Shown here: positions 1,311 to 60,191 of the stretch, piece by piece | Layout: each line of letters starts with the position of its first letter | How positions within the stretch are numbered: the stretch's first letter is position 1 | Assembly: GCA_023267595.1 (NCBI GenBank) | Contig: JAHFNB010000001.1 | Coordinates: 8,837 to 72,836 of the forward strand | Direction: 5' to 3' | Source of the DNA: a bacterium | Lineage (GTDB): Bacteria; Patescibacteriota; Minisyncoccia; Phycocordibacterales; UBA5272 | Length of the DNA stretch: 64,000 nucleotides | Position numbers and translations under genes: made by a program | The notes under the pieces: generated by a model | What the model saw: only the letters and a program-made list of their open reading frames with translations | Told to the model about the DNA's origin: nothing | Databases searched by the model: none

Positions 1311-3587
1311 ATGGCAAAAGAGTCTCTTCAAATAGATGTACCACGTACACGTAGACGCCGAAGTAAAGATCCTGTACTTACAGAAACTGTACTTGGTGTT
1401 CTTGCAGTGATCTTTATTATGATTGGGACACTTCTTATTTTCTCTGCTGTTGGTGCAGGTGGTGAAGGTGGGAAAAATCTTTTTGAAGGAATAAGTTCCC
1501 TTATTGGTAAGTTCACCTATCTTACTCCACTTCTCTGTTTTTATATTGCTTACTATTTATGGAAAGAAGAGATCCCTGAAATACGTTTTATGACTGCACT
1601 TGGAACTATCTGTCTTGTGCTTGGTATTGCAGGATTTGGAACTATTATAGGACCAATCAATCAACCACCTGATCAAATCTTTGGTGGATACCTTGGTTTG
1701 GTTATTGTGAATCCTCTTCTTGAATACTTTGCATACTATCCGAGTATTGCAATATTAGTTGGTATTACTCTTATTGGAGCAATTATCACTCTTGAACGAA
1801 AACCGTCTCTTACACCACTGTTACAGATACTTATGTATCCACTTAAACATATCTTTGCATTACGCCAAGCAAGAAAAGAACAGTCATTTGATGATGAAGA
1901 ACACGAACCTGCACAATATGTACCAGAAGAATCTATAGAATTGCAAGATGACAACTTAAGAAAAGAACTTTTTGGTGAACTTGCACCAATTGATGATGAT
2001 CTCCCACAACTCAAAAAAGAAATACCTATGAAGCCAGTCATACTCACACCTGAGTTTGTACCACCGCCACTTGATCTCTTAAACGTTGATAGTGGAAAAT
2101 CAGGTGCTGGAGATTCTCGTGCAAAAATGATAACTATTCAAAAAACTCTAGAGCATTTTAAAATTCATGTTGAAATGGGAGAAGTAACTGTTGGTCCTAC
2201 GGTTACACAGTTTACTTTGAAACCTGCTCAAGGAGTAAATCTTTCAAAGGTTGTTGCTCTCCATGATAATCTAGCCATGGAGTTAGGATCTGAATTTTTA
2301 CGTATTGAAGCACCAATACCTGGAAAAACTCTTGTGGGTATTGAAGTACCTAATGAGAGAAAATCTTTACTTGGTCTTCGCTCAATGCTTGAATTAGATG
2401 AATTTAAAAATGCAGGTCCACTTTTTATGGCGATTGGAAAAAGTATTATAGGAAAACCAATTTTTGGAGATCTTGAGAAAATGCCACACTTACTCGTTGC
2501 CGGGGCTACACGAACAGGTAAATCAGTAACGCTTCAAAATCTCCTTGTTTCATTACTCTATAAAAACTCACCTTATGATTTGAAACTCATTATCCTTGAT
2601 CCAAAACGGGTAGAGTTTACTGCATACACCAATCTTCCTCATCTCTATACTCCTATTATTAAAGAGCCAAAAGGTGCCATTAAAGCACTCAACTGGGCAA
2701 TACAAGAAATGGAAAGACGATATGAAATACTTGCAGAACATGGTCAAGTAAATGTACATGACTATAATAAAAAAATATTATCTCCTGCATTAGACAAAGC
2801 ACGAAAGAAAGGAAAGGTTGGTGATGAATTAACTGACATTCCTCCAAAGATGCCTTATATTGTAATTATTTTTGATGAATACAACGACTTTATGCTTTCT
2901 TATCCAAAAGAAATATCTCCACTTATTACAGCACTCACTCAAAAAGGTCGTGCTGCGGGTATTCATCTCATCTTGGCAACACAACGACCAGATGTAAAAG
3001 TAATTACAGGAACTATCAAAGCAAATATTCCTGCACGTATGGCTCTTAAAACTACATCACAAATTGATTCACGTACAATCTTAGATGCCTCTGGCGCGGA
3101 AGATCTTCTTGGAAATGGTGACATGTTATACATGGCATCAGATAACCCTCGATTACTTCGTCTTCAAGCACCTTTCATTTCTACAGAAGAAATAAAAGCA
3201 GTTGTTTCATATATTAAACACGCAAATGTTGATTTTATTCCAGAAAGTATCGATATTTCAAAAGTAAAAGTTGGAACATCAAGTGGACTCGTTTCAGATG
3301 ACGGAGTAAATAGTGGTACAGAACCAGAAGATGATGAAGACTACATGAGTGCGAAGGATTACGTAATCTCTACAGGAAAGGCATCTACCTCTTCCCTTCA
3401 AACTGCATTTCGTTGGGGTTACAATAAAGCAGCACGTATAATCAATGACCTTGAACGATTTAGCATTATCGGTCCTGCACGACAAGGAGAGCGCTATCGA
3501 GAAATTCTTGTCGGTGGATCATCTGGTGAAGAGCAATTAGAAGAAACATTACAAAAGGATTCAACAACTGATGATATTTTTAAGTAA
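1311..3587 (+). CDS. ftsK: DNA translocase FtsK/SpoIIIE
   Basis: N-terminal TM helices, Walker A VAGATRTGKS, Walker B IIFDEYND, RecA-like motor, C-terminal gamma wHTH (QTAFRWGYNKAARIINDLE). Confidence 0.9.
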   Translation: MAKESLQIDVPRTRRRRSKDPVLTETVLGVLAVIFIMIGTLLIFSAVGAGGEGGKNLFEGISSLIGKFTYLTPLLCFYIAYYLWKEEIPEIRFMTALGTICLVLGIAGFGTIIGPINQPPDQIFGGYLGLVIVNPLLEYFAYYPSIAILVGITLIGAIITLERKPSLTPLLQILMYPLKHIFALRQARKEQSFDDEEHEPAQYVPEESIELQDDNLRKELFGELAPIDDDLPQLKKEIPMKPVILTPEFVPPPLDLLNVDSGKSGAGDSRAKMITIQKTLEHFKIHVEMGEVTVGPTVTQFTLKPAQGVNLSKVVALHDNLAMELGSEFLRIEAPIPGKTLVGIEVPNERKSLLGLRSMLELDEFKNAGPLFMAIGKSIIGKPIFGDLEKMPHLLVAGATRTGKSVTLQNLLVSLLYKNSPYDLKLIILDPKRVEFTAYTNLPHLYTPIIKEPKGAIKALNWAIQEMERRYEILAEHGQVNVHDYNKKILSPALDKARKKGKVGDELTDIPPKMPYIVIIFDEYNDFMLSYPKEISPLITALTQKGRAAGIHLILATQRPDVKVITGTIKANIPARMALKTTSQIDSRTILDASGAEDLLGNGDMLYMASDNPRLLRLQAPFISTEEIKAVVSYIKHANVDFIPESIDISKVKVGTSSGLVSDDGVNSGTEPEDDEDYMSAKDYVISTGKASTSSLQTAFRWGYNKAARIINDLERFSIIGPARQGERYREILVGGSSGEEQLEETLQKDSTTDDIFK

Positions 3588-3613: not shown

Positions 3614-3967
3614 ATGATTGAACCTTATGATCTACGGAAAAAGATAGAACTCTATTTTGTAGGAACCCTTCTTGTTATTGCACTTATATACGGACTTTTC
3701 CGTGCATACCCTCTCATAGCAGGACCATCTATTACCATCTACAACCCGCAAGATGGTGATATTGTTGCTAGTTCTACTTTTGAAATAACTGGTCTAGTAA
3801 AACGAGCAAATGAAATAACTTTACAAGGTCGCCCCATAACTATAGATACCGAGGGTCATTTCAAAGAGGTATTGGTAGCCTACACGCCATATACTATACT
3901 GGTATTACATGCTACCGATAAATATGGGGCAACAATTACCAAGACACTTCGAGTAATACCGAAATAA
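3614..3967 (+). CDS. small membrane-anchored hypothetical protein
   Basis: 117 aa, one N-terminal TM helix then predicted beta-rich extracytoplasmic domain. Confidence 0.4.
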
Positions 3968-6034: not shown

Positions 6035-6056
6035 CTCTAGTTTACTTTAATCTATA

Positions 6057-6160
6057 ATTATTCCAGATACGCGAAGTCTAGAGATTTTTGGAAGAAGACG
6101 TACATATACTAGTACGGCGACTGAGAAAAATCTCGTAGCGACAAAGTAGATGGGATGATT
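6057..6160. repeat. ~103-bp intergenic repeat element, copy 1
   Basis: ~93% identical to 19146..19248; contains nested inverted repeats gagattttt/aaaaatctc and cgtac/gtacg. Confidence 0.6.
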
Positions 6161-8900
6161 ATAGATTAAAGTTGTATTTTTTGAGTATTTCTGACTCCAC
6201 TTCTTCCTTTGGTCTTCCATACGTTAAATAACTTAATTCTTTCAGAGAATCGATTCGTGACATATCCCCTATCTTTGGTGGTAACGTAACAATATCAAAT
6301 GGTTTTCTTGGTTCACCATTAACAAGCATTTTTATATATGCATGGTAGTTTTCTATCTTCATGATATCTCCTGCAGTAAATGTAGGTGCAAATTGTTGCT
6401 CGAGATACTGTGCATCGTCTCCTCCTACACGAAATACGGCAAGTGATCCAACATTTCCAAATACTGCACCTTTTATATCTTCTGGTAATTGTGCAATGTA
6501 TTGATGTGCTACTGAAAGAGATAATCTGTACTTGCGTGCTTCAGATAAAATACTTGCGATACTTGGTGTCGTCACATTTTGGAATTCATCAATATACAAG
6601 AAAAAATCTGGTCGCTCTGTTGCGTTCACACGTGACATTGCTGCTTGAGATAATTTACCCACCAAGATAAGTCCAAGCAAATGAGAATTAATATCTCCAA
6701 GTCTTCCTTTTGAGAGATTTACTAGAAAAATCTTTTTCGTATCCATAATTTCTCTAAAATTAAAAGCAGATTTTTCCTGTGCAATAATCGGCCTCATAAT
6801 ATCATTTGACATAAACACATCAAACTTACTGTTAACATACTGTGTCCAGTTGGAGAGACCTTGCTCCCCTGTTGTTTTCTCTGCATTTTGCCAAAATTGT
6901 AAAAGAAGTGGATTTTTTGTTTTTGATAATTTGTAATCTCTGAAATCTTTATCAGAAAATACTCGTGATATTTCCAAAAGTGTATTTCCACTTTCTGGAT
7001 GTTCCATAACAAGAAGTGCTGCATTTCTAAAATATGATTCAAATCCTGGACCGCCGGAGACTTTCATATCAAATAATTTATTGAAAATGCCGAGTAATTC
7101 ATTAACCACAAATGTCTTTTGTTCGGGAAAATTCTTATCATATTCAAGCATATTTAATCCCATTGGACGCTCTATATAACTCGGATCAAAGTAAATGACA
7201 TCTTTGGTGCGCGCAGGTGGGATATGTGACAAAATATCTTGAATATCAGATCCATGAGGATCGATAAAGCAACACCCTTCCCCATTTTCAATATCTTGAA
7301 TAATCATATTTTTCAAGATAGATGTCTTTCCTGTTCCTGTTTGACCAATAACGTATAAATGTCTCATTCTATCCTCACGAGCAAAATGTATCGTTTGTTT
7401 TTGATCACGGAAATTATTTATACCAAGTACAATTCCTTCTGTTGGCATATCCATTGGGGCTTGGGCTGCTTTTTGTAACCTGACATTTGCCACATCTTTT
7501 GTCTGCATTGGAAAATGAAATACTGATGCGAGTTCAGAGATGTTAAGTGGGTAACTTTCATCTTCATTCCAAAGACGATATGAAAAGCGGTGAAGCAAGG
7601 CTTTTTGTTTTCTCCCATCTACTTCTTCCCACACAATACTATTTCCTCCAACAAGAGAAAACTGTGCGAACGCATTCTCCAAATCAGAACGTATTGCTTG
7701 TGCACGTGCAAAGTCTGCGGCTGAAGCAATAATACGAATATTTGTTTCAACAATTGTCTTTGCTAATTTTTCTTGTACATATTTCATTGCATTTTCTTCT
7801 ACCAATGATGGTTTCTTTTCTTTTTCCTTCTCTAATTGTTCTTTTGTTTTTGATGCTGAAAACATTTCACCAAGCACATGAAATGTTTCTTTAAGTGTGC
7901 TTTGTTTATCGATTACTCGTTTGAGTGTTTCTCCTTTTCGTAAATCCTCGAGCATATCACCGTATCGTTTTGCAAAGACATCTCCCGATGGACGTATGAG
8001 TAACTGTAGTGCAAGTCCTTCATTATCTTTTGCAATTTTTGTAAATGTTGAAAGAATAAGAGACATTGGATCGGCTTCCATGTTTTCATAGGTTTTTATA
8101 GGTAATGCAGGATGCGTACTTGCCTTAGCATACGAAGCAGCCGTGACTGCATGACTATGAAAAATATTATAATCATCTTTACACTCACGAACTTGTGCAG
8201 TTGGAAATACACCTAACACCACTTTTTCAAATAACGCCGCATAATCAATGTGTATTGCACAATAAAATGATGTCGTCGTAGTTCCGTTTGCTACACCCAG
8301 TTCAAGGGTATAATAATTCTTCTCTTTATTTGTTGCATCACTTGCGAGTGCCTGCATGGATGCATACCACTGTTCCATAAGTGCCATCATTTCCTTCATA
8401 CTCTTCACATTTCCCTCTGTTCCTTCTGGGAGTATCACTTCAAACAACTTCATATGAAGTGCTTTCCACTCATCTTTTGCAAGATTATTATCCATCACAT
8501 GACCAGAAAGAAGATACTGTACTAAGAATCTTTCAAAATCATCTTCCACTTCTGGATCATTTAATTCTTGCGCCATAATAAAGGCATTTTTCACCCCTTT
8601 ATCTGCCATAACTTGAGCAAGCATAGAAACTTGAGCATCAGTCTCTCGTGGAGATAACCATTCAAGCAATCTGTGTTTCTCTCCACTTGTTAATTGCACT
8701 TGTGGTGCAAGTATTTTTTCTTCTGGAACTTCTCTATAATCACGAACCACTTCACGAGCATGATCACTCTCTTTGAATCGATTTTCGAATCCTTTTGCAC
8801 GCTCAATTTTATTCGCAAGTTGCAAGCGTAAGTGTGCCACCTCTTCTTCAGGAGTAGTAAGCAGTGTATCCATACTGTACAGTTTACAGTTTACGGTCAA
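6159..8900 (-). CDS. FtsK/HerA/VirD4-superfamily P-loop ATPase (T4SS coupling-protein-like) with unknown ~450-aa N-terminal domain
   Basis: Walker A VIGQTGTGKTS, IDPHG, FDPSYIERPMGLNML, Walker B FFLYIDEFQN, RKYRLSLSVAHQYIAQL; no TM segment; starts 23 nt after map stop. Confidence 0.55.
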   Translation of the reverse strand: MTVNCKLYSMDTLLTTPEEEVAHLRLQLANKIERAKGFENRFKESDHAREVVRDYREVPEEKILAPQVQLTSGEKHRLLEWLSPRETDAQVSMLAQVMADKGVKNAFIMAQELNDPEVEDDFERFLVQYLLSGHVMDNNLAKDEWKALHMKLFEVILPEGTEGNVKSMKEMMALMEQWYASMQALASDATNKEKNYYTLELGVANGTTTTSFYCAIHIDYAALFEKVVLGVFPTAQVRECKDDYNIFHSHAVTAASYAKASTHPALPIKTYENMEADPMSLILSTFTKIAKDNEGLALQLLIRPSGDVFAKRYGDMLEDLRKGETLKRVIDKQSTLKETFHVLGEMFSASKTKEQLEKEKEKKPSLVEENAMKYVQEKLAKTIVETNIRIIASAADFARAQAIRSDLENAFAQFSLVGGNSIVWEEVDGRKQKALLHRFSYRLWNEDESYPLNISELASVFHFPMQTKDVANVRLQKAAQAPMDMPTEGIVLGINNFRDQKQTIHFAREDRMRHLYVIGQTGTGKTSILKNMIIQDIENGEGCCFIDPHGSDIQDILSHIPPARTKDVIYFDPSYIERPMGLNMLEYDKNFPEQKTFVVNELLGIFNKLFDMKVSGGPGFESYFRNAALLVMEHPESGNTLLEISRVFSDKDFRDYKLSKTKNPLLLQFWQNAEKTTGEQGLSNWTQYVNSKFDVFMSNDIMRPIIAQEKSAFNFREIMDTKKIFLVNLSKGRLGDINSHLLGLILVGKLSQAAMSRVNATERPDFFLYIDEFQNVTTPSIASILSEARKYRLSLSVAHQYIAQLPEDIKGAVFGNVGSLAVFRVGGDDAQYLEQQFAPTFTAGDIMKIENYHAYIKMLVNGEPRKPFDIVTLPPKIGDMSRIDSLKELSYLTYGRPKEEVESEILKKYNFNL

Positions 8901-8923: not shown

Positions 8924-9691
8924 CTATTGAGTGATAATTTCTGCTTTTCCGTCAGTAATCAAAATGGTATGTTCAAAATGCGCAGATTTTTTACCATCAC
9001 GAGTTTTAAAAGTATATCCATCATCTGCCAAATATACTTCATCAGTCCCTAGATTTACCATTGGTTCAAGTGCAAGTACCATTCCTTTTACAAGTTTTGG
9101 ACCCTTCACTCCATCATCAAAGTTTGGTACATAGGGTTCTTCATGTACTTTATACCCAACACCATGTCCTGATAATATTTTTACGATGCCATATTTTTTT
9201 GGAATTGCCTTTTCAATAGCACGTGATATATCATTTACATACTTTCCATTCTCTGCTGCGTGTATTCCTGCCATAAGCGCTTTCTTTGTCACTTCAATCA
9301 ATTCTTCTTCCTCTTTTGTTATTTTTCCAACAGGTACAGTTATTGCCGAGTCAGATATCATTCCTTTATGTGTCACTCCACCATCTAATCCAACAATATC
9401 CCCTTCTTTGAGCACATACTCCCCTCCTATGCCATGCACCACTTCATCATTCACTGAAATACAAATACTTCCTGGATATGGATAATCTGCCCCAAATGGT
9501 TGATAGTGTAAAAATGCAGGTTTGTCCCCCATCTCTACTATCATATCGTGAACAAAATCATTTAAATGTTGTGTGGTAACTCCAGGACGTACTTCATTTT
9601 TTACGGCCTGCAAAACACGCGCAAGTCTTTTTCCACTTTCACGTAGTATTTTTATATCATTTTCTGTTTTTATTTTTACATCATATTTCAT
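8924..9691 (-). CDS. map: methionine aminopeptidase type I
   Basis: pita-bread fold motifs HGIGG..., HFEHTILIT; start moved to MKYDVKIK (ORF-track start 9724 would overlap adk). Confidence 0.9.
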   Translation of the reverse strand: MKYDVKIKTENDIKILRESGKRLARVLQAVKNEVRPGVTTQHLNDFVHDMIVEMGDKPAFLHYQPFGADYPYPGSICISVNDEVVHGIGGEYVLKEGDIVGLDGGVTHKGMISDSAITVPVGKITKEEEELIEVTKKALMAGIHAAENGKYVNDISRAIEKAIPKKYGIVKILSGHGVGYKVHEEPYVPNFDDGVKGPKLVKGMVLALEPMVNLGTDEVYLADDGYTFKTRDGKKSAHFEHTILITDGKAEIITQ

Positions 9692-9710
9692 AACATGTAG
9701 TTTCCAGCAT

Positions 9711-10319
9711 CTATCCTCTAACATCTAACTTCTCCAGTATTTCTTTATGAACTTCTTCGATTGTTTGTTCACCGTTAATATGTAGCACCTTGTAACGTGG
9801 ATCATGTAAATACACATCAAGTGTAGGGAGTACTTCTGTCTCAAACCAAGAAAGTCTACGTTCTATATCCTCAATACTCTTATCATCATCACGTCCACGA
9901 GCAAGTAATCGTTCCTTTGACCAACCTTCAGAGACATCAACATAGACGACAATTGGTTTTTCATATCCTAAAAATGTAATAGCACTGTGTAATACATGTA
10001 CTTCAAAAGGTTTACGTGGCGCGCCATCAAGTAATATAGTTTCATCACCTTTAAGTGTGTTTATAAAAATATTTGCCCAATTATAGACAGCCAAAAACTC
10101 AGGTTGTAATGCTCCTAGTTCATTAACTTTTCTAGAGAGAGAAGAAACATAGGTATCTTGTTTTGCAAACGCACGAAAACCATCCCCTGTTGTGATATGG
10201 ACTACATTTTCTATACCTTTACCTTCCAATTCCTTTTTAAGTAATTCTGCCTGAGTCCCTTTCCCACATCCAGAACGCCCTATAAATATAAAGAATTGCT
10301 TCTGTCTTTCTCCTTGCAT
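9711..10319 (-). CDS. adk: adenylate kinase-like nucleoside monophosphate kinase
   Basis: P-loop IFIGRSGCGKGTQAE; spc-operon position between secY side and map. Confidence 0.75.
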   Translation of the reverse strand: MQGERQKQFFIFIGRSGCGKGTQAELLKKELEGKGIENVVHITTGDGFRAFAKQDTYVSSLSRKVNELGALQPEFLAVYNWANIFINTLKGDETILLDGAPRKPFEVHVLHSAITFLGYEKPIVVYVDVSEGWSKERLLARGRDDDKSIEDIERRLSWFETEVLPTLDVYLHDPRYKVLHINGEQTIEEVHKEILEKLDVRG

Positions 10320-10355: not shown

Positions 10356-11009
10356 TTATACTCCGTAGACTTTCTTCAATGTTTCTTGATCACCCTTTAA
10401 TCGTCTTCCTTCTTTAATGTTTTTATATAGTTTATATCCACTGTAAGCCAAGTAACTTGCTCCTGCGACAATAGGCAACACTCCAAATGTACTAGCAGCC
10501 AATATACCAGTACCTGTAACGACTCCTGTACTACCTGTTGCTAGAGTGCTAATAAATCCTGGAACTAATGATGCATTTACTAATATATAACCCATACCGG
10601 CTACAATAACTGGTAATGTAACTGCTTCCATTGCACCAAAGGAAGAAGATGTACTGGTAGATTTTATAATAGTCTCTGCTTCTCCATAATTTTTTCCCTG
10701 AATATTTGGATATTTTTGAAGAAGTTCATTATGTGCAACATCACTTTCATTTGGTGTAATTGGTGATACTACCTCTTTTTTCTCTGGAGTATTCATTGCT
10801 ACTGGCGTAGCAATTTGTTCAGGAGGTTTTGAGAGTGTTTCAGTTAATTTTTCTACACGCATTGTATCTTCTGACTTTGGTAATTCTGGAATTGGTGTCT
10901 CGAACTTTGCATCTAGGTTTTGTAGAAGAATTGCGGGAGATTCTACTTGTGCTGCCTCTTCAACAGATACTGGCTCAAAATCAATACTATTATTTGGTTT
11001 ATTTTCCAT
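10356..11009 (-). CDS. glycine-zipper membrane protein, paralog B of tandem pair
   Basis: N-terminal MENKPNNSIDFEPVSVEEAAQVESPAI identical to paralog A; acidic middle; Gly/Ala/Ser-rich C-terminal TM segments; start set at conserved MENK. Confidence 0.55.
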   Translation of the reverse strand: MENKPNNSIDFEPVSVEEAAQVESPAILLQNLDAKFETPIPELPKSEDTMRVEKLTETLSKPPEQIATPVAMNTPEKKEVVSPITPNESDVAHNELLQKYPNIQGKNYGEAETIIKSTSTSSSFGAMEAVTLPVIVAGMGYILVNASLVPGFISTLATGSTGVVTGTGILAASTFGVLPIVAGASYLAYSGYKLYKNIKEGRRLKGDQETLKKVYGV

Positions 11010-11016
11010 ATTTTTA

Positions 11017-11667
11017 TTAAGCAAAAACTTTTCTCGCACGATTCGTATTAATCATATTTTTTATCTTACGCACACCCTGATATAAAAGATATGCTGCACC
11101 ACCTACTGCAATAACTGGGCCGACTACAGAAGTAGCCCCCAACATAGTCATTTCAATTGTACCACTTGTTAAAAGAGCAGAAACTCCAGATGACAAAACC
11201 CCTTGTCCTGCAGAATTTGCCGCCGCAAGTCCAAGAAGAGACAACATTCCACCACCAATCACTGTAACACCAGATACAGTGGATTTTTCTTTTATATCCA
11301 ACCTTTCAAAATCTAGACCAGATTTTACTGTATTTTCTGGTGTGTCAGATGGACCCATTTTTCTTCCATAATCACCATAACTACTCATAAGTGAATTCAA
11401 AACTTGATTTTCTTTTACTTGACCTTCAACTGTATTTTCTTCACTCTTAATTTCTGGAGATGTAGGTAATTTTTCTTGTAGTATAAGTGAATCTTTTATT
11501 TCTTGAGCACGAATTATATCTTCTGGTTTTTGATCTACAGACTTTGATACTTCGTATTTTGCATCTAAATCTTCCGGAGGAATTGCAGGAGATTCTACTT
11601 TTGCTGCTTCTTCAACAGATACTGGCTCAAAATCAATACTATTATTTGGTTTATTTTCCATATCCAA
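11017..11667 (-). CDS. glycine-zipper membrane protein, paralog A of tandem pair
   Basis: same N-terminal 27 aa as paralog B, ~75 nt near-identical at DNA level; C-terminal GGGMLSLLGLAAANSAGQG...GPVIAVGGAAYLLY. Confidence 0.55.
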   Translation of the reverse strand: MDMENKPNNSIDFEPVSVEEAAKVESPAIPPEDLDAKYEVSKSVDQKPEDIIRAQEIKDSLILQEKLPTSPEIKSEENTVEGQVKENQVLNSLMSSYGDYGRKMGPSDTPENTVKSGLDFERLDIKEKSTVSGVTVIGGGMLSLLGLAAANSAGQGVLSSGVSALLTSGTIEMTMLGATSVVGPVIAVGGAAYLLYQGVRKIKNMINTNRARKVFA

Positions 11668-11732: not shown

Positions 11733-12992
11733 CTAGTATTCTTTCATAGAAAGTTGAGCATCAATCTTCTTTATCAAATCAAGTACTACTGATACAACAA
11801 TTAGCAAACTCGTTCCCCCAACTTGAATTGCTGTTAATCCAGTCACTGCTTGCACAACAACAGGAAGAACAGCAACTATTCCTAAGAAAACTGCACCAAA
11901 AAGTGTCACACGAGCAAGGACATACCCAATATGTTCTGCCGTTGCGGTTCCTGGTCTATATCCTGGGATAAACGCACCATTTTTCTGAAGGTTATCTGCT
12001 GTCTTTTCTGGATCAAACATTACTGCCGTATAAAAATACGTAAATGTTACAACAAGAAGGAAATACACTCCTCCATACACCCAATGATTTGCAAGTAATG
12101 AATTAACTGTAATTGCAACTGAACGAAGCATATCTTGTGAAGATGTTGCAAGTAATTGACCTAGTAATTGTGGAAAAAGTAAAATTGAAATTGCAAAAAT
12201 TATCGGCACCACTCCTGCTTGATTAAGACGAAGTGGAAGATATGTCGAATGTCCTAATGTACTTCCTGACATACGTGTTTGACGTGCATAAGTCACTGGT
12301 ACTGGACGTTCTGCTTCTGTTACATATACAACTCCTGCAATCACAATAAGCGATAATACAAGTAGCCCTACAACCATCGGAATCTGTGATACATCAAATG
12401 TAATGAAAAATTGTCCCAAATGTTGTGGAAGTGCCGCAACAATACCTGCGAAAATAATTAAAGATACTCCATTTCCAATACCTTTTTCATTAATCTGTTC
12501 ACCTAGCCACATCATGAGCATGGTACCTGCAGTAATGATAATGAGGTTAAGTGCCATAACTTCTCCTGTTAAACCAGAAATAACATTCTGACGTGAAAGA
12601 AGGGTAAGGAGTGCAAATCCCTGAAGTACCGCCATAGGAAGAGTAAGTAAACGACCATATTGTACAAAGCGACGACGTCCTTGATCTCCCTCTTCTTGAT
12701 ACATCTCTTTAAGACGAGGTGAAAGTACCGTCGTTAACTGCATAATAATAGATGCAGTAATATATGGTCCAACACCAAGCATCACAATAGAAAATGATGC
12801 GATTCCCCCTCCTGCAAAGATATTAAGTAATCCGAAAAAACTATTGTTCTGTAAAAATTGTGCAAGATTTGATGCATCAATCCCCGGAATTGGGATAACT
12901 GCGAGTATTCGAGTAAGTACCAAAACACCAATAACAAATAAAATACGGGTACGTAGTCCGCGATCAGAAAAAATTGCCGTTAAGGTATTCAT
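11733..12992 (-). CDS. secY: preprotein translocase SecY
   Basis: 10-TM SecY architecture, conserved plug/loop motifs. Confidence 0.95.
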   Translation of the reverse strand: MNTLTAIFSDRGLRTRILFVIGVLVLTRILAVIPIPGIDASNLAQFLQNNSFFGLLNIFAGGGIASFSIVMLGVGPYITASIIMQLTTVLSPRLKEMYQEEGDQGRRRFVQYGRLLTLPMAVLQGFALLTLLSRQNVISGLTGEVMALNLIIITAGTMLMMWLGEQINEKGIGNGVSLIIFAGIVAALPQHLGQFFITFDVSQIPMVVGLLVLSLIVIAGVVYVTEAERPVPVTYARQTRMSGSTLGHSTYLPLRLNQAGVVPIIFAISILLFPQLLGQLLATSSQDMLRSVAITVNSLLANHWVYGGVYFLLVVTFTYFYTAVMFDPEKTADNLQKNGAFIPGYRPGTATAEHIGYVLARVTLFGAVFLGIVAVLPVVVQAVTGLTAIQVGGTSLLIVVSVVLDLIKKIDAQLSMKEY

Positions 12993-12994
12993 GA

Positions 12995-13507
12995 TTATTT
13001 CTTTTTCTTAGCAGACACTTTCTTTTCTTTTTTTGGTTTCACAGGAAGTGCCGGCTTCTCTGAAATTGTAACAGTTCCTCCTGCTTTTTCAATTTTTTCT
13101 TTTGCTTCTTTTGAAACAGTACATCCTGAGATAGTAAGAGCAATAGCAATCTCCCCTGTCCCTAATATTTTTACCTTTGGATGTTTACCAAAAATTTGTG
13201 CAATAAGACCTTTTGCAACAAGAGCCGTAGGTGTAACAACATCTCCTGCAGAAAATACTGAAAGAGCACGAACATTTACCACTGCTTCTGGGCCACGATA
13301 AAATACAGACTTCGCGCGATTCTTTCCATGACCTCGTAACTTTGGAAGTTTCTTGATGATATCACGCATTGCTGGACGAACTCGGTGACCAGCACGTGCA
13401 GTTTGACCCTTGCCACCTTTTCCAGATGTCTTGCCACGTGTACCTCCACGTCCTACGAGTTTTGATTTTTTAAGTGCGTGTGCACGTTTGATTTCGTGTA
13501 TTTGCAT
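12995..13507 (-). CDS. rplO: 50S ribosomal protein L15
   Basis: RGGTRGKTSGKGGKGQTARAG motif; Lys-rich C-terminal tail. Confidence 0.9.
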   Translation of the reverse strand: MQIHEIKRAHALKKSKLVGRGGTRGKTSGKGGKGQTARAGHRVRPAMRDIIKKLPKLRGHGKNRAKSVFYRGPEAVVNVRALSVFSAGDVVTPTALVAKGLIAQIFGKHPKVKILGTGEIAIALTISGCTVSKEAKEKIEKAGGTVTISEKPALPVKPKKEKKVSAKKKK

Positions 13508-15849: not shown

Positions 15850-16320
15850 TTATCCGATACGTAACACACTACTTAGTCCTCGTAACTTCTTTTTTCTCTG
15901 TTCTATGAGTTTTGCTTTTTCATCACTAGAGAGAGCGACTCTTAATGTGTCTTCGAAATCTCTCTGCTCTCTTTCTGCCATCTTTTGACTTGTAATAGCA
16001 GCAAAGAATCCCCACGCAGAGCGTGCTTGACCTTGCTTATGCAGTGCACATAATCGAAATTCTTTTTGCCTCATGATTTCAGGATCTTGTGCATCAAGAG
16101 CATCTGCTATAACAATTAAAGAGTTAGGAAATGGAGGTCGTGTATCTTGATCATCATCTCGATATATCTCGATCGCCTCAGAAATATCTTTCTTCCTATA
16201 TTCAAAACCAGGACAATTTTGGAGAGAAAAATGATATCCTCGTATGTGCTCTACTTCATCTCTTTTTTTATGACCAGCCTCTTGATAGCCACAATTTCTA
16301 CAAATAAATCCGTAAGCCAT
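15850..16320 (-). CDS. hypothetical Cys/His-containing protein (possible zinc-ribbon N-terminus) inserted in spc operon
   Basis: 156 aa; N-terminal CRNCG...H...H...C; acidic/helical remainder; no family recognised. Confidence 0.4.
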   Translation of the reverse strand: MAYGFICRNCGYQEAGHKKRDEVEHIRGYHFSLQNCPGFEYRKKDISEAIEIYRDDDQDTRPPFPNSLIVIADALDAQDPEIMRQKEFRLCALHKQGQARSAWGFFAAITSQKMAEREQRDFEDTLRVALSSDEKAKLIEQRKKKLRGLSSVLRIG

Positions 16321-16383: not shown

Positions 16384-16905
16384 ATGAATTACATTATAAA
16401 AAAGTATATACTACAGTACATGCAAATTATTTTTTACGTATTGGAAGTTATTGGACTATGGAAAATGTTTGAAAAAGCACACGTTGCAGGATGGAAAGCA
16501 CTTATTCCTGTATATAGCACATACCACAAAGTTAAAATTGCTAATCGTTCTCTTTCTTTCTTTTGGTTTATGATTTCTCCTTTTATTGGTGTATTTATTA
16601 CAGTGATATTATGGGGAATTATTGGTCTTTTTTCTTCAATACTAGGAGATACTTCCCCTCTCATTACTCTCTTCTCTGATCTAGTAAGTAGAACTGTCCC
16701 ATTTTTTGTTGGTCTCTTTGTTATCTTAGTTCTTATCGTTACACTACCACTTGGTATTATTTTGCAATATGATATTGCAAAATCATTTGGTAAAGGTGCT
16801 TGGATGACTGTAGGATTAGTCCTTGTTCCTTTTATCTGTAACTTAGTCTTAGGATACGGAAAAGCAGAATATAAAAAAATACATAGAACAAAAGAAGAAC
16901 AGTAA
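16384..16905 (+). CDS. DUF5684-like small polytopic membrane protein
   Basis: 173 aa; motif LWKMFEKAHVAGWKALIPVYSTYHKVKIA plus 3-4 TM helices; opposite strand to flanking ribosomal genes. Confidence 0.45.
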   Translation: MNYIIKKYILQYMQIIFYVLEVIGLWKMFEKAHVAGWKALIPVYSTYHKVKIANRSLSFFWFMISPFIGVFITVILWGIIGLFSSILGDTSPLITLFSDLVSRTVPFFVGLFVILVLIVTLPLGIILQYDIAKSFGKGAWMTVGLVLVPFICNLVLGYGKAEYKKIHRTKEEQ

Positions 16906-16938
16906 ATAAAAAACCAGTCCATAGGACTGGTTTTTTAT

Positions 16939-18303
16939 TTACCAAGCAATCGGCATTGCATTTCCTGTAACTGTTGTCTGTGCAGTTCCTACTACTTGTC
17001 CAGATGGATTTGTAATATTTGCAATAAATACAACATCTTGTTTATAGTACGTACTATTTGTAATCATTGCAGGAATCTCCTGTTGAGCACTATTAAGCGT
17101 AAATGGCATTGCAAACTCCTGACCACATGGAATACCTGCTACGGTTACTTGTACATTAGCAATAGGACATACTGCGTGAATACGTAATGAGTATTGACCA
17201 TAAATACTTGCATCATAGTAATTACTTGCAGGAATGTTGATGTAAAGTCTGAATAATTCACCAGAGTTTACTGGGTTCTTATTTGCAGAGATAACTACAT
17301 TACCATAGAAAGAATATGGACGTTTGATAAAGATTGGAGAAACGGCTGCGCGGAATGTAGAGGTAACACCTGCAATATCCGTAAGAGGAGTTGTGATAAC
17401 AATACGATATGAACCTTGAGCATAATTTTGTGCACATGATCCAGTACAAAGATAATCTAGAATATCTTTTGTAAGAGTAAACGTAGCAGAATTACCACTT
17501 GTTGTCATAATGTACTTACTTTGTCCAGAACTATTTTCAAGGAGAATCTGATACTGACTCGCATTAATATTATTTGTAGTCCATGTAACATTTACCGTAT
17601 CTCCTTCATTGTAATGACTGTCAGTTCCTGGTGAAGAAATAGAGAGTGTCCCTGGTTGTGGAATAAGACCATAGGTATATCCAATGTTTGGACTGTAGAC
17701 AATATTTGTACCATATACAAACGATGTATTTGTTGTTGCAGGTGTAATTACATTTGTCGTAATTGGATTGTATGAATTATATGCGGTATAGTTTGAACCT
17801 GTTGTTCCGTACGTATACGTTGGATTATTTGAGTTAGTGATGATAGTCGATGTGATATTTTTTACATATGGATCATATGTATCTACAACTGTTGTACCTG
17901 CTGAATATCCATAATCATAATTTGAATATGATGTATTGTATGTATTTGAATTGTAGGTATTTCCATTACAAAGTTGTGCATTGATTAGATCACGTGTTGA
18001 TTGTCCTACTGTACCTGTTGTAAGAAGACCACTATTTGATTGAAAAGACACAACTGCAGAATACGTAGCCGGACCAAAGTAACCATTTGGTGTTGCATAG
18101 AGATAACCACGTCCTGCTAGAAAGTTTTGAAGTGTGTATACATCTTCATTTTCAGAACCAGACTGAAGTGTACGAGTGATAGATGTACCACATCCATAAT
18201 TATTATAATCGGTAAAAATACCTGCAAAGGTAAATGTTGGAGTACTGAGGAAAAATCCCACAAATCCAAGGAGAAAAATACTGTTTTTGATTCCTGTTTT
18301 CAT
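16939..18303 (-). CDS. secreted protein: signal peptide + peptidoglycan-binding (PG_binding_1-like) domain + N/T/Y/S-rich low-complexity linker + Cys-containing C-terminal domain
   Basis: N-terminal MKTGIKNSIFLLGFVGFFLSTPTFTFA; DVYTLQNFLAGRGYL...GPATYSAVVSFQ matches PG-binding helix pattern; ~120-aa N/Y/T/S-rich repeat-like region. Confidence 0.6.
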   Translation of the reverse strand: MKTGIKNSIFLLGFVGFFLSTPTFTFAGIFTDYNNYGCGTSITRTLQSGSENEDVYTLQNFLAGRGYLYATPNGYFGPATYSAVVSFQSNSGLLTTGTVGQSTRDLINAQLCNGNTYNSNTYNTSYSNYDYGYSAGTTVVDTYDPYVKNITSTIITNSNNPTYTYGTTGSNYTAYNSYNPITTNVITPATTNTSFVYGTNIVYSPNIGYTYGLIPQPGTLSISSPGTDSHYNEGDTVNVTWTTNNINASQYQILLENSSGQSKYIMTTSGNSATFTLTKDILDYLCTGSCAQNYAQGSYRIVITTPLTDIAGVTSTFRAAVSPIFIKRPYSFYGNVVISANKNPVNSGELFRLYINIPASNYYDASIYGQYSLRIHAVCPIANVQVTVAGIPCGQEFAMPFTLNSAQQEIPAMITNSTYYKQDVVFIANITNPSGQVVGTAQTTVTGNAMPIAW

Positions 18304-19130: not shown

Positions 19131-19145
19131 TATAAAAAGTAAGAA

Positions 19146-19248
19146 ATTATTCCAGATAGGCGAAGCCTGGAGATTTTTGGAAGAAGACGTACACACTAGT
19201 ACGGCGACTGAGAAAAATCTCGTAGCGACAAAATAGATGAGATGATTT
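19146..19248. repeat. ~103-bp intergenic repeat element, copy 2
   Basis: ~93% identical to 6057..6160, same orientation; lies between rplX stop and rplE start. Confidence 0.6.
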
Positions 19249-33145: not shown

Positions 33146-33721
33146 ATGGACTTACATACACTCATTTCATCTGGCTCATATGTAGCAATATTTTTACTCA
33201 TGACTACAAACGGTATTGCAAATCTTCCGTCGTCACAATTCCTTTATATTATTTGTGGCTACTTTATTGCAACAGGAAATCTTCTTTTTATTCCAACAAT
33301 TATTGCAGGTGCACTAGGTAACACTCTTGGTAACATCATTACATTTTTACTTGTGAAAAAATATGACAAACCTTTTGCTAGAAAATTATTAATGATGAAC
33401 GAAGAAACATTTACCAAAGTTCATGCTGCACTACACTCAACATTTACACATAAAGGTATGTGGTGGATTTTCTTGGGTAAACTGACACCTTCTGTAAAAG
33501 CATTTATTCCAGTCGTCGCAGGTCTCGCTAGTACTCCAAAAAAACTCACGTATTTTATTTTTCTAATCGCGTCCTTTATCTGGGCGACAGGTATTACATT
33601 CCTCGGGTACAAGTTTGGAGAGCATATCACATTCACTTCTTTTTCAATCATTTCATTAGCAATTGGTAGTATCATCTTATTTGTTATATATAAAAATCTA
33701 AAGAAAAAATTAGACTTCTAA
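33146..33721 (+). CDS. DedA/SNARE-associated (VTT) family membrane protein
   Basis: 191 aa, 4-5 TM, PSSQF... and G-x-G motifs. Confidence 0.55.
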   Translation: MDLHTLISSGSYVAIFLLMTTNGIANLPSSQFLYIICGYFIATGNLLFIPTIIAGALGNTLGNIITFLLVKKYDKPFARKLLMMNEETFTKVHAALHSTFTHKGMWWIFLGKLTPSVKAFIPVVAGLASTPKKLTYFIFLIASFIWATGITFLGYKFGEHITFTSFSIISLAIGSIILFVIYKNLKKKLDF

Positions 33722-35238
33722 TAGGAGATGACATCTGTGAGAACTCCGTCTTCATACGTACTCTTCGTTTCATTTTTTATTTTGTGTACAAAATAAATCA
33801 TAAAGAAAAATAGTGACACATACACTAAACACATTTCTAAAAATGAAATCGTGAGTGTAAATGTTGAGAATGGTAATCTCTCAATTACTTCTGCTACATG
33901 TAACATAAATGAAATTACAAGCATATCTGCGATACCAAATACTGATGAAATCACACCTGATATATACGACATAACTACTACAATACATGATAGTAGCATT
34001 GCGAGTGGTACAAGAGGAAGTACGATAACATTCGCGATAAGTGCATACACTGATACTGTGCCGAATGTATACATAATATATGGAAGTGTCACCACATAAG
34101 CAGATAATGTTGTGATACATAATTCTTTCAAAGCACGCGTTGAAATATTTTTAAATATGTTCCCGATTGGTTCTGCAAAATATACTATCCCTGCAGTTGC
34201 GAGAAATGAAAGATGAAGTGACACATCATGCAGCAATGCATATGGTTCATACATCACAATTAAAAATAGTGAAATAATGAGTGCTTGTTTTGCTACATAT
34301 TGTCGACCAAGTAATGTTGCGAGTAATGTAATAAAAGCCATGAGTGTCGCACGTATCACACTTGCCTCCCCTCCCACCATCATCACAAATAAGATTACAG
34401 AAACACTAGCAAGTGTGATACGAACAAAAAGCGGTAAGAAAATAAACACAAATAATATAAAAGAAATCACTACTGCAATATTGAATCCTGACAAAACGAT
34501 GATGTGTGATAATCCTGCTGTGCGAAATGTTTGAATAAGTTCTTTTGATAATGAAGAGTCACCGAATAACATTCCAGTTGCAAGTGCTGATTCTGGTACA
34601 CTCACATATCTTTCAATACGTAAAATTAAATTTTCTTTCCACCTTCCTAAAATATCTTTCACTGTGTGTGCTTCAATATCTATTATTTCAATTTGTGGAT
34701 AAAATATTTCACTACCAATATTTCTTGTCGCCAAATATGATGCGTAGTCGAAACTCTTTGCACTTCCATGTGATGGTATTACATCCGGCTCCGAAACTTT
34801 CCCTGTTATCTGTAGTGTCTCTCCTATTTTATATTTTGGATACAGTGGTGTACGAAGTTGCACATCAAAAATATTTTCTTCATGAGTGATTGGATGCACA
34901 GTAAATATCTGATATGCATCTTTTGATTCAGGTGAAGAAATGATTGTTGCATCAAATGTGCAAATTTTTTCACACACAAAATTATTCTTTTCTTCTACCA
35001 ACTGCACTCGTATTATTCCAACTACTAATCCAATAGAAAATAATATTGTAACCAGAGGAATTCTGTATTTACCGTCAACTGTAAACTGTTGTCTGTTAAC
35101 TAGCAACAGTGGTGCTTGTATAAATACAAGCACCACTGTTGCTACTGCCACTTCTGTTGCAAACCTTGAAACTTCACCAACTACTATTCCCAAACATATT
35201 CCTACAATCAGAACTAATGTTTTTGAGTGTATATTCAT
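33718..35238 (-). CDS. comEC: ComEC/Rec2 DNA-uptake channel, membrane domain (no MBL domain in this ORF)
   Basis: competence domain GMLFGDSSLSKELIQTFRTAGLSHIIVLSGFNIAVV and many TM helices. Confidence 0.7.
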   Translation of the reverse strand: MNIHSKTLVLIVGICLGIVVGEVSRFATEVAVATVVLVFIQAPLLLVNRQQFTVDGKYRIPLVTILFSIGLVVGIIRVQLVEEKNNFVCEKICTFDATIISSPESKDAYQIFTVHPITHEENIFDVQLRTPLYPKYKIGETLQITGKVSEPDVIPSHGSAKSFDYASYLATRNIGSEIFYPQIEIIDIEAHTVKDILGRWKENLILRIERYVSVPESALATGMLFGDSSLSKELIQTFRTAGLSHIIVLSGFNIAVVISFILFVFIFLPLFVRITLASVSVILFVMMVGGEASVIRATLMAFITLLATLLGRQYVAKQALIISLFLIVMYEPYALLHDVSLHLSFLATAGIVYFAEPIGNIFKNISTRALKELCITTLSAYVVTLPYIMYTFGTVSVYALIANVIVLPLVPLAMLLSCIVVVMSYISGVISSVFGIADMLVISFMLHVAEVIERLPFSTFTLTISFLEMCLVYVSLFFFMIYFVHKIKNETKSTYEDGVLTDVISY

Positions 35239-35263: not shown

Positions 35264-35827
35264 CTAACTGAGAGTATACTCACTCCTCGGTCCCCTATAT
35301 AGTTGCAAATCGTTCGCATTATCTGCACACATTGTTGCTATCGTATCTGCTCTTTCATTCATTGTTACTCCTACATGTGCTGGTACATATTTCCAACTGA
35401 CTTTCACTCCACCTTTCTGAAGTCGTTCCTCCTCTTTTTTCAAATCTTCCCACAAATCTTGATTCAACACCGGCTTTTTCGTAGATCCTTTCCAACCCTT
35501 TGCTATCCATCCATCTATCCATTCCGTCATTCCCCTTTTCACATACTGACTATCAGTACATACCTCGACAGATTTTAGACCATAGACATTAGACATTAGT
35601 TTTTCTTGTTTAGCATTTATATGTCGCAGTCCTTCAATTGCTCCAGTCAACTCCATGCGATTGTTAGTTGTCATATCTTCTCTACCACCGAGTTCTATAA
35701 CTTCGTCTAGATTATCGTATTTACTGTTGTCTGTTGTCTGTCGTCTGTCGACTAGTATCACTGCACCCCACCCCCCTTTCCCCGGATTTCCTCTACTTGA
35801 CCCATCCGTATACATAGTGATTTTCAT
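35264..35827 (-). CDS. rnhA: ribonuclease HI
   Basis: MYTDGSSRGNPG, ELTGAIEGL, CTDSQYV, ADTIA; ~30-aa insertion. Confidence 0.85.
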   Translation of the reverse strand: MKITMYTDGSSRGNPGKGGWGAVILVDRRQTTDNSKYDNLDEVIELGGREDMTTNNRMELTGAIEGLRHINAKQEKLMSNVYGLKSVEVCTDSQYVKRGMTEWIDGWIAKGWKGSTKKPVLNQDLWEDLKKEEERLQKGGVKVSWKYVPAHVGVTMNERADTIATMCADNANDLQLYRGPRSEYTLS

Positions 35828-38124: not shown

Positions 38125-38126
38125 AA

Positions 38127-59249: not shown

Positions 59250-60191
59250 CTACTGTTTTTTTCTCTTAGAATGAAACTTTTCAAACTGATCACGAAGAAA
59301 TTTGTTCGTTACATTGGTATATATTTGTGTCGTTGCAATTGAAGAGTGCCCAAGCATCATCTGTACCGTACGAAGATCTGCGCCATTATAAAGTAAATCA
59401 GTTGCAAATGAGTGACGAATGACGTGTGGGGTACACTTTTTTGCAATACCCGCGAGTACAGCATATTTATGTACAATACGTTCAACACTTCGTGGTGTTA
59501 ATCGTACAGACTCTTCTTTTACCATGCGCGAATGTGCACGAGGAGAGTGATCAATAAACATTGCTTCATCAACATCCACACGTGCTTGTAAATATTTTTT
59601 AACTGCATCATGCGCACCACCAGAGACAAACACAACACGTATCTTTCCTCCTTTTCCTCGCACTGAAATCTCTCCTGTATGTAAATCTGTATCTCTATCT
59701 AATGAACATAATTCTGAAACACGTAATCCTGTTGAAAAAAATAATTCTAAGATTGCTTTATCCCGTAAACCAGATACGGTACTACTATCTGGTGCTGATA
59801 GTAAATTGTGTAATTCTTTTTCAGAAATGAGATCAAGTTCACGAGAAGAAGTTTTTGCGAGTTCAATACGCTCAGGATCATAACTCTGAGTGCCACGTCT
59901 TCTCATATATTTAAGAAATGCTCGAAGTGCTATGAGATGATAATTCTGTGTACGTTTGTCTAATGTCTCTTGCGCTTGACCTTTTTTCATAGCACGTGCC
60001 GGATGACGATTCAAATACACTCTATAGTCTCGCATCATCTGTTCAGTAATATCAGTAGGGGAATCCACCTTAATAAACTCTAAGAAACGAGTAAGGTAGT
60101 GATCATAATTTCGCACCGTAAGAGCAGATCTACCTTTTTCTATCTCTATATACTGAAGAAAATCTTGTTTTAAAGAGAAAAGTGAATGCAT
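59250..60191 (-). CDS. tyrosine site-specific recombinase XerC/XerD
   Basis: R..HxxR..Y catalytic set: ...RHSFATDLL...LGHSSIATTQIYTNV. Confidence 0.85.
   Translation of the reverse strand: MHSLFSLKQDFLQYIEIEKGRSALTVRNYDHYLTRFLEFIKVDSPTDITEQMMRDYRVYLNRHPARAMKKGQAQETLDKRTQNYHLIALRAFLKYMRRRGTQSYDPERIELAKTSSRELDLISEKELHNLLSAPDSSTVSGLRDKAILELFFSTGLRVSELCSLDRDTDLHTGEISVRGKGGKIRVVFVSGGAHDAVKKYLQARVDVDEAMFIDHSPRAHSRMVKEESVRLTPRSVERIVHKYAVLAGIAKKCTPHVIRHSFATDLLYNGADLRTVQMMLGHSSIATTQIYTNVTNKFLRDQFEKFHSKRKKQ

Follow-up and report, generated by a model that had tools for sequence, protein, structure and literature searches.

The gene and its reading frame

The 64 000-nt stretch of contig JAHFNB010000001.1 analysed here, which we call the window, carries on its minus strand, at the tail of the spc operon, a gene for a large soluble ATPase that joins a domain of the DUF8128 family to a motor resembling those of type IV coupling proteins (T4CPs). 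The gene is real, chromosomal and highly conserved in Paceibacteria, which belong to the ultra-small bacteria of the candidate phyla radiation (CPR). Its uninterrupted open reading frame (ORF) runs from a TTG at position 8900 to position 6159 and comprises 913 codons, as listed in an earlier account made from the letters of the window alone (the sequence-only reading), which left the strand unstated; all five motifs quoted there are present in the translation. The ORF is thus real, but the likelier start, judged by comparison with homologues, is the ATG at 8873, because the homologues begin at the equivalent methionine (M1, nearly invariant in their alignment) and because an identical 904-amino-acid protein is found in public assemblies and is included in the public protein collection (P0001). 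The coding sequence would accordingly span 6159–8873 (minus strand; stop codon 6159–6161) and specify 904 rather than 913 residues, and the gap to the stop of the upstream gene map, at 8924, becomes 50 nt instead of the 23 nt originally given.

Upstream, a stop codon immediately past map closes the reading frame, which leaves no alternative start that could add a transmembrane (TM) domain. No TM segment was found within the protein either, the maximum Kyte–Doolittle hydropathy over any 19-residue window being 1.42, below TM-like hydrophobicity, and this confirms the lack of an N-terminal membrane anchor pointed out before. The GC content of the gene is uniform with that of its surroundings.

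A coupling-protein-type motor in the C-terminal half

The ATPase domain proper occupies residues 481–868 (6270–7433, minus strand) and consists of a RecA-like nucleotide-binding domain into which an all-alpha segment is inserted. Its Walker A motif, GQTGTGKT (residues 510–517; 7323–7346), is invariant across 70 homologues except at T514 and T517, each of which is conserved in at least 90% of them, and within the Walker B region, FFLYIDEFQN (residues 757–766, with D762 and E763; 6576–6605), the alignment of homologues shows Y760, I761, D762, E763 and F764 to be invariant. An AlphaFold2 model of the full protein, built on the 70 homologues and having a mean predicted local distance difference test (pLDDT) score of 82.6, places eight consecutive helices (residues 585–711; 6741–7121) between the strands 559–562 and 715–719; this is the layout of TrwB, and the insertion lies at the position of the TrwB all-alpha domain. 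In the same model the domain is preceded by a low-confidence linker to the N-terminal half (residues 458–480; 7434–7502; pLDDT below 50 at 458–468) and followed by a C-terminal tail of two helices, 871–885 and 889–902 (residues 869–904; 6162–6269).

Profile searches point in the same direction. The Pfam models TrwB_AAD_bind (24.7 bits, cut-off 20.5) and TraG-D_C (23.7 bits, cut-off 22) were passed marginally, each over a short stretch, and the top NCBIfam matches were to TraD/VirD4 families, but with scores of 29–42 bits against cut-offs of 250–650. The only sequence relatives in the PDB were TrwB and DotL. In Pfam, FtsK_SpoIIIE (18.1 bits, cut-off 24, confined to the P-loop) and DUF87 (16.9 bits, cut-off 23.2) stayed below threshold. 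When the full-length model was compared with known structures using Foldseek, the closest single-domain match in fold was TrwB (E 4e-12, TMt 0.66, rmsd 4.7, about 410 columns), and the match to HerA (E 1e-9) was weaker than that to TrwB or to VirB4. On these sequence and predicted-fold criteria, the C-terminal half is a TrwB/VirD4-type T4CP ATPase with intact Walker A and Walker B motifs. The sequence-only reading had recognized a P-loop core of the kind that serves type IV secretion systems (T4SSs) as a coupling protein, and on this point Pfam, the PDB relatives and Foldseek agree; its wider label, ‘FtsK/HerA/VirD4-type’, holds for VirD4/TrwB but was too broad in naming FtsK and HerA, whose profiles fall under their cut-offs. 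Nor is the gene that of the housekeeping FtsK: the genuine FtsK, with alpha, motor and gamma domains, is encoded at 1311–3587 of the same window.

Among 15 diverse members of the family, the motor and the all-alpha insertion are each about 68% identical, compared with 30–35% for the N-terminal half, and the C-terminal tail is about 51% identical among relatives. The all-alpha domain of plasmid-encoded T4CPs is the variable, substrate-specific part of these proteins; because it is conserved here, its constancy in Paceibacteria suggests one fixed partner or substrate.

The N-terminal half and its predicted fold

In the AlphaFold2 model the N-terminal half begins with a helical extension (residues 1–135, helical over 8–123; 8469–8873), which is absent from variants of about 790–860 residues, for example in Wolfebacteria, that match the protein from residue ~137 only. 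The extension leads into an alpha/beta core (residues 136–457, modelled at 141–432; 7503–8468) that contains a disordered Lys/Glu-rich loop at residues 327–357. The core corresponds to DUF8128 (PF26449), a precomputed Pfam match on the identical protein P0001 and on nearly all homologues, and one Wolfebacteria relative is named ‘DUF8128 domain-containing protein’ in UniRef; the literature that we searched held no paper on DUF8128. The ‘~450-aa domain of unknown function’ of the sequence-only reading is therefore a distinct domain, as claimed, but one that can be identified, as DUF8128 with a predicted VirB4-like fold. Our own searches with Pfam, on the full protein and on 23 N-domains (E up to 10), and with NCBIfam returned nothing consistent for this half.

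The fold prediction arose from the structure comparisons, in which the best Foldseek matches of the full-length model overall were not to TrwB but to full-length TrwK/VirB4 (851–924 columns, E 2e-14). To test the contribution of the N-terminal half to this match, residues 1–475 were modelled alone (pLDDT 81.8). All 14 PDB matches of this model with E ≤ 3e-3 were to TrwK/VirB4 (E 5.8e-6 to 3e-3, probability 0.99–1.0), further matches, to generic ferredoxin-like folds, all having E values above 1e-2. The chain 8rtd_h, of 457 residues, ranked third for the N-domain model but did not figure among the top 50 matches of the full-length model, a ranking that fits a match of N-domain to N-domain. Structure prediction for this domain, as had been proposed, thus yielded a fold whose significant matches are to the VirB4 (TrwK) N-domain only. 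For the DUF8128 half the prediction is a fold like that of the VirB4 N-terminal domain, and for the whole protein a VirB4-like two-domain layout, with a soluble N-domain in place of the membrane anchor.

Close to the N-terminus lies a near-invariant T-P-E-E-E-x-x-x-L-R motif (residues 7–16, with P8-E-E-E and L15-R16; ~8826–8855, minus strand), in a helical extension that is otherwise only about 30% conserved. To judge by this pattern of conservation, the motif looks like a docking peptide for a partner.

Relatives on plasmids

A tblastn search of 72 556 plasmids with the C-terminal half gave matches in 1527 records; the best, from Alphaproteobacteria, Actinobacteria, Bacillus, haloarchaea and Sulfolobus (the TraG-like protein of pTC), were annotated ‘type IV secretion system DNA-binding domain-containing’ or ‘DUF87’. 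The most informative of these relatives is encoded by the Bacillus licheniformis plasmid NZ_CP035190.1, namely an 885-residue DUF87 protein without TM segments (WP_128472464.1). Its gene is directly followed by that of a Replic_Relax relaxase and then by those of TcpC (VirB8-like), TcpE (VirB3-like) and an 847-residue AAA_10 VirB4, and this position directly upstream of the relaxase means that the 885-residue protein occupies the slot of the coupling protein in the operon. Using hhalign, the profile of the Paceibacteria family aligned with this ATPase colinearly over query residues 167–866 (probability 99.9, E 2.3e-31), and the N-domain alone matched its first 320 residues (probability 87.6, E 3.5e-6). 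Against the VirB4 of the same plasmid, only the P-loop of the family profile was matched (E 0.08).

Both halves are thus detectably homologous, at the level of sequence profiles, to a TM-less ATPase of a Bacillus conjugative plasmid and, given that VirB4 was matched at the P-loop only, the family belongs by sequence to the coupling-slot ATPase lineage of monoderm conjugation rather than to VirB4. The Bacillus protein has the same two-part architecture, lacks TM segments and is colinear in both halves. It differs in being plasmid-borne, beside a relaxase, TcpC, TcpE and VirB4, in being only ~25–27% identical, in lacking the 135-residue N-terminal helical extension and in having about 165 extra residues at the C-terminus.

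The relatives from Bradyrhizobium, Rhodococcus and Sulfolobus share the C-terminal half, and the Bradyrhizobium alignment covers that half only. The closest plasmid relative of the C-terminal half is in fact the one on the Bradyrhizobium plasmid p131_1 (8083–10209), a 708-residue protein that is 33% identical and has a different N-terminal half. This plasmid is non-mobilizable, and the gene sits among those of CHAT-domain and tetratricopeptide repeat (TPR) proteins, a setting which suggests that further soluble ATPases of the T4CP type have taken up work in systems that are non-conjugative and possibly concerned with conflict.

Distribution and genomic context in Paceibacteria

Relatives are present in at least 595 GTDB species representatives. 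From these we kept 80 loci, most of which span the whole protein at 46–78% identity; they are labelled Nomurabacteria, Yonathbacteria, Lloydbacteria, Paceibacterota/Paceibacteria or Minisyncoccia, and some ‘uncultured Candidatus Saccharibacteria’. Public proteins of about 900 residues with the same architecture number in the hundreds, at 73–87% identity within the close clade and 48–54% in the wider Paceibacteria. A search with the N-domain alone returned 835 representatives of 50%-identity clusters at E up to 1e-3, the shorter variants described above among them.

Upstream of the ATPase gene and on the same strand lie map (methionine aminopeptidase, Pfam Peptidase_M24; 8924–9724), adk (adenylate kinase; 9711–10319), two paralogous membrane-protein ORFs, secY (11733–12992) and the gene for L15. 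The placement at the tail of secY-adk-map, noted in the sequence-only reading, is therefore correct, and many relatives keep the order: of the 60 loci whose flanks were long enough to tell, 47 have map upstream in the same orientation, 24 of them at a distance of no more than 400 nt. Directly downstream on the same strand, 43 of 64 loci have ndk, at a median gap of ~107 nt (for example, 12799–13272 at locus L086 and 10721–11323 at L012); a beta-CASP/RNase J-like gene follows in 36 loci, and often a DUF2238 membrane protein gene too. The common order is thus secY-adk-map-gene-ndk, with the ATPase between two nucleotide kinases. In the clade of the window itself the downstream side is rearranged, its place being taken by a convergent efp-recA-ftsK block, and both ndk and the RNase J-like gene are absent from the 64-kb window. 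Where map is not adjacent, the neighbours are genes for MetRS, TatD, NDK, PBP2, RNase Y, trigger factor and similar proteins, and core-gene synteny is kept down to ~47% identity. A same-strand scan between map and the ATPase gene found no promoter- or terminator-like site, a result that is uninformative by itself; the gene is probably co-transcribed with the spc-operon genes.

No relaxase or T4SS gene was found among the scanned ORFs of the window or in any examined flank of the relatives, and no integrase stands next to the ATPase gene in the window or in those flanks, the sole integrase-family gene of the window, a tyrosine recombinase at 59250–60191, being ~50 kb away. Likewise, neither a NurA-like protein nor a defence partner was encoded among the flank genes scanned. 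A search of 2.9 million viral contigs turned up only three distant relatives, restricted to the C-terminal half, and a phage or mobile origin was rejected on this ground. In Paceibacteria the gene is chromosomal, stable and apparently vertically inherited. The sequence-only reading had doubted classical conjugation and had proposed a survey of neighbours in related genomes; the survey found housekeeping neighbours, no T4SS and a pilus cluster at one locus of 86, and the doubt is borne out, there being no relaxase, T4SS gene or mobile-element marker in the flanks of the gene here or at related loci.

The locus with the pilus cluster is a Wolfebacteria contig (L085, 13268–22379), in which the gene of a short, 792-residue variant is followed at ~1 kb by comFC and a pilM-pilN-pilO-pilB-pilT-pilC-pilin-pilD cluster. 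When comFC and the type IV pilus genes were searched by tblastn against the 86 loci and the window, this was the only such adjacency, the sole other trace being a 25%-identical pilM-like match ~6 kb upstream at locus L058. A general linkage of the family to pili or competence was rejected, as it would rest on this single locus.

Other features of the window

The spacer between the ATPase gene and the convergent efp contains a long nested hairpin of ~129 nt (6044–6172) that overlaps the stop codon of the ATPase gene and has a predicted folding energy of −38.3 kcal/mol (z = −7.0); efp, recA and ftsK converge on it from the opposite side, and it is likely to mark the end of the transcript. Its core, ~105 bp (6056–6160), abuts the ATPase stop and recurs at 19145–19247 with 94–96% identity, so that the ‘103-bp repeat’ reported at the end of the gene was seen correctly. 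The second copy lies inside the ribosomal-protein cluster, between rplN (L14; 19489–19869) and rplE (L5; 18413–18973). Rfam recognized four tRNAs in the window and nothing that matched the hairpin repeat, a palindrome that could be an element resembling repetitive extragenic palindromic sequences or miniature inverted-repeat transposable elements (REP/MITE-like), or a terminator module.

The two ORFs between secY and adk (10356–11039 and 11017–11667, minus strand; 227 and 216 residues) are tandem paralogues that share a 178-nt stretch of 79% identity. Both have an acidic N-terminal part, two glycine-rich TM helices at the C-terminal end and no Pfam match. By tblastn, a similar ORF was found at the same position in one other related locus (L005) only, and annotated relatives carry unannotated ORFs of 176–217 residues at this position. 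Further into the spc cluster, a gene for a 454-residue PG_binding_1 protein (16939–18303, minus strand) is inserted between those for L5 and S8, as it is in a relative of 77% identity (L003/L004), and two ORFs, 16434–16922 (weak DUF5684 match) and 15850–16320 (no Pfam match), separate it from the S8 gene. On the other side of the ATPase gene, between ftsK and recA, a small gene (3614–3967, plus strand) encodes a protein that combines one TM segment with a Glucodextranase-B-like immunoglobulin (Ig) domain; close relatives share the order ftsK-Ig-domain gene-recA, as does a Yonathbacteria locus (L053). Finally, the genes of a ResIII-type helicase (757 residues) and an N6/N4 DNA methylase (513 residues) adjoin at 35851–39668 (minus strand), between that of RecJ and an RNase H gene (35264–35827), which separates the pair from ComEC; they look like a type III restriction-modification pair.

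Role of the ATPase

The role of the protein is clearly not that of ordinary plasmid conjugation. The interpretation that we favour, and that we regard as about evenly poised between right and wrong, is that a conjugation-type coupling ATPase has been domesticated and serves a relaxase-less, chromosomal patescibacterial T4SS. The motor would, by analogy with TrwB, form a putative hexameric ring in which ATP hydrolysis feeds a substrate, be it protein, DNA or another molecule, into a membrane channel, for export or import. This channel would most likely be the relaxase-less chromosomal T4SS, of monoderm mating-pair formation (MPF-FATA) ancestry, encoded elsewhere in the chromosome and typically near dnaA. 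In R388, the N-domain of VirB4 docks that ATPase to the membrane complex; the VirB4-like N-domain predicted here may, by analogy, replace the TM helices in docking the ring onto VirB3/VirB6/VirB8-like membrane subunits or onto VirB4. Production of the ATPase would be constitutive, because the gene is apparently co-transcribed with the spc-operon genes.

A recent survey of Patescibacteria (Quinonero-Coronel et al. 2025; PMC12102498) provides the setting for this interpretation. According to it, patescibacterial VirB4 is monophyletic, chromosomal and nested in MPF-FATA, occurring in 2417 of 3035 genomes and often near dnaA; relaxases are almost absent from Patescibacteria; and of 5713 VirD4-type homologues, in 2918 genomes, only 148 lie near virB4. 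Its authors suggest that these homologues may have been exapted. The ATPase gene of the window is very likely one of these 5713 homologues.

Several points weigh against the favoured interpretation. The likeness of the N-domain to that of VirB4 rests on predicted structures, with modest TM-scores of 0.33–0.36 and with aligned target ranges that the search tool does not report, and it found no support at the level of sequence, hhalign of the N-domain against the Bacillus plasmid VirB4 giving an E value of 0.63. The partnership with a T4SS is inferred, since neither the window nor any of the flanks examined encodes a T4SS component. According to the survey (PMC12102498), T4CP homologues occur in 2918 of the 3035 genomes and VirB4 in 2417, so that some T4CP copies must exist without a detectable T4SS; and in Candidatus S. 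epibionticum, which belongs to a different class, the T4CP homologue is reported there to be non-essential for epibiotic growth, in contrast to other T4SS genes. It is because T4CP homologues outnumber VirB4-bearing genomes, and because the Saccharibacteria homologue is reported to be non-essential, that we hold the interpretation no higher than we do.

The first of the alternatives, which we treat as a minor but real possibility, is that the protein is a translocase of DNA or other nucleic acid that works independently of a T4SS, its ring pulling DNA inward together with ComEC and type IV pili, or acting in import in the manner of the coupling ATPase CedD; such import would supply DNA or nucleotides to an organism unable to make them. 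The excess of genomes with T4CP homologues over those with VirB4 fits this proposal, as does the precedent of CedD, a VirD4-like ATPase that is essential for DNA import and whose chromosomal gene stands apart from the other ced genes; some of its orthologues lack a TM domain (PMC11823120). The NCBIfam models of CedD and CedB do match the protein, but at 18 and 16 bits, far under their cut-offs. Similarly, the Wolfebacteria locus adjoining comFC and the pil cluster is a single case among 86, and the common position between adk and ndk, which could suggest a link with nucleotide supply, may mean only ‘housekeeping operon’, adk being a classical member of the spc cluster. The sequence-only reading had pointed to ComEC and ComM, and both are indeed encoded in the window (33718–35238 and 62068–63624), along with RecA and RecJ, but ComEC lies 25 kb away with unrelated genes between. 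The evidence favours neither side on this link, which is thus not supported either way.

To a broader version of this proposal we assign a rather small likelihood: all Paceibacteria would possess, as part of their core housekeeping equipment, a T4SS-independent translocase that retains the ancestral VirB4-like two-domain layout with a VirD4-type motor, a living VirB4/VirD4 ‘intermediate’ acting as a CedD-like importer of host-derived DNA or nucleotides. If true, such an import motor would account both for the fixed place of the gene, with adk/map on one side and ndk on the other, and for the unusual strength with which the all-alpha substrate domain is conserved.

It is also conceivable, but in our judgement improbable, that the protein has merely descended from T4CPs and is now a housekeeping ATPase unrelated to transport across the envelope, concerned with the chromosome or nucleoid or with remodelling RNA or protein. 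Its conserved placement among genes for translation, secretion and nucleotide kinases, the fact that motor and all-alpha insertion are so very strongly conserved, and the lack of a membrane anchor would all suit such a role. The window, however, already encodes a canonical FtsK, every detectable relative with an informative context is associated with conjugation or transport, and the N-domain is predicted to resemble the domain by which VirB4 is docked to the membrane complex in R388.

That the protein is not a coupling protein but a divergent VirB4 paralogue, an ATPase for assembling or energizing a T4SS or a pilus, seems to us decidedly improbable. The idea is suggested by the structure comparisons, in which the full-length matches to TrwK/VirB4 have better E values than that to TrwB and only VirB4 significantly matches the N-domain model, and the lack of a TM anchor is usual for VirB4. 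At the level of sequence the comparison goes the other way: there is no AAA_10 or CagE_TrbE_VirB match (full protein, E up to 1; N-domain, E up to 10), no VirB4 model appears among the precomputed Pfam matches of the homologues shown, and the plasmid VirB4 was matched at the P-loop only, compared with the long colinear match to the coupling-slot ATPase. Moreover, Patescibacteria own a monophyletic VirB4, usually near dnaA (PMC12102498).

That the gene belongs to an integrated conjugative element, as its ordinary coupling protein, or forms part of an anti-phage defence island is very improbable indeed: family resemblance to plasmid T4CPs, a weak PADLOC mad8 match (E 2.7e-12) with HerA matches and the C-terminal-half relative among CHAT/TPR genes on the Bradyrhizobium plasmid are all that speak for it, against flanks that held no relaxase, T4SS gene, integrase or defence partner at the examined loci, a uniform GC content, near-absence from viral contigs and the extensive core-gene synteny on which we rejected the defence-system reading.

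Comparison with known systems and implications

The favoured interpretation, of a domesticated coupling ATPase, sets the family beside several known systems without placing it squarely in any of them. By descent, and in the way in which it would work, it is allied to the T4CPs. With the T4CPs TrwB, VirD4 and TraD it shares the P-loop nucleotide-binding domain with an all-alpha insertion, and homology to a protein of the coupling slot. It differs from them in having a soluble N-terminal region of 475 residues instead of a TM anchor, and in being encoded by a widespread chromosomal gene, unlinked to relaxase or T4SS genes and syntenic with housekeeping genes. We have not classed it as a canonical T4CP because TM anchor and relaxase/T4SS linkage are both absent; a TM anchor is not universal in the coupling slot, the Bacillus homologue also being without TM segments. 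With VirB4/TrwK of R388 (PDB 7O42 and 8RTD) it has in common a soluble N-domain, a RecA-like C-domain and no TM segment, but there is no sequence similarity beyond the P-loop, AAA_10 and CagE_TrbE_VirB are unmatched, and the TM-scores are modest, at 0.33–0.42. It lacks the alpha, motor and gamma set of FtsK/SpoIIIE, which usually comes with an N-terminal 4TM region, and, in contrast to HerA, scores under the DUF87 cut-off and has no NurA or defence partner in the scanned flanks. CedD (and TedD) resembles it as a domesticated chromosomal coupling-type ATPase, relaxase-free and apart from its partner genes, with some TM-less orthologues (PMC11823120). The lineage is nevertheless a different one, the NCBIfam model NF053655 scoring 18.1 bits against a cut-off of 600 (E 8.7e-4), and CedD of S. 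acidocaldarius is membrane-bound and UV-induced, with no DUF8128-like N-domain described; CedD is thus a functional analogue only.

Two elements of this picture were already known, namely the orphan T4CP homologues of Patescibacteria, from the survey (PMC12102498), and the DUF8128 family in Pfam. The passages of the survey that were read mention no DUF8128 or VirB4-like N-domain, lack of a TM anchor, map-gene-ndk synteny or link to the coupling-slot ATPases of Bacillus plasmids. As far as the literature searched shows, the predicted likeness of DUF8128 to the VirB4 fold, the kinship of both halves with a TM-less coupling-slot ATPase of Bacillus plasmids, the conserved map-gene-ndk placement and the strong conservation of the all-alpha domain have not been described.

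Patescibacteria depend on other cells, and in the one patescibacterial lineage with genetics the T4SS is essential. What the abundant ‘orphan’ coupling-protein homologues do is a question raised in 2025 by the survey (PMC12102498), and for Paceibacteria, the largest class, the present analysis provides a handle on it: a defined family (DUF8128 with a T4CP motor), an operon position (map-gene-ndk) and a predicted VirB4-like docking domain. The relative on the Bacillus conjugative plasmid is experimentally tractable. The VirB4-like N-domain, if confirmed, would bear on the kinship of the two T4SS ATPase families, VirB4 and VirD4, and on the way in which a channel recruits coupling proteins that have no TM segment.

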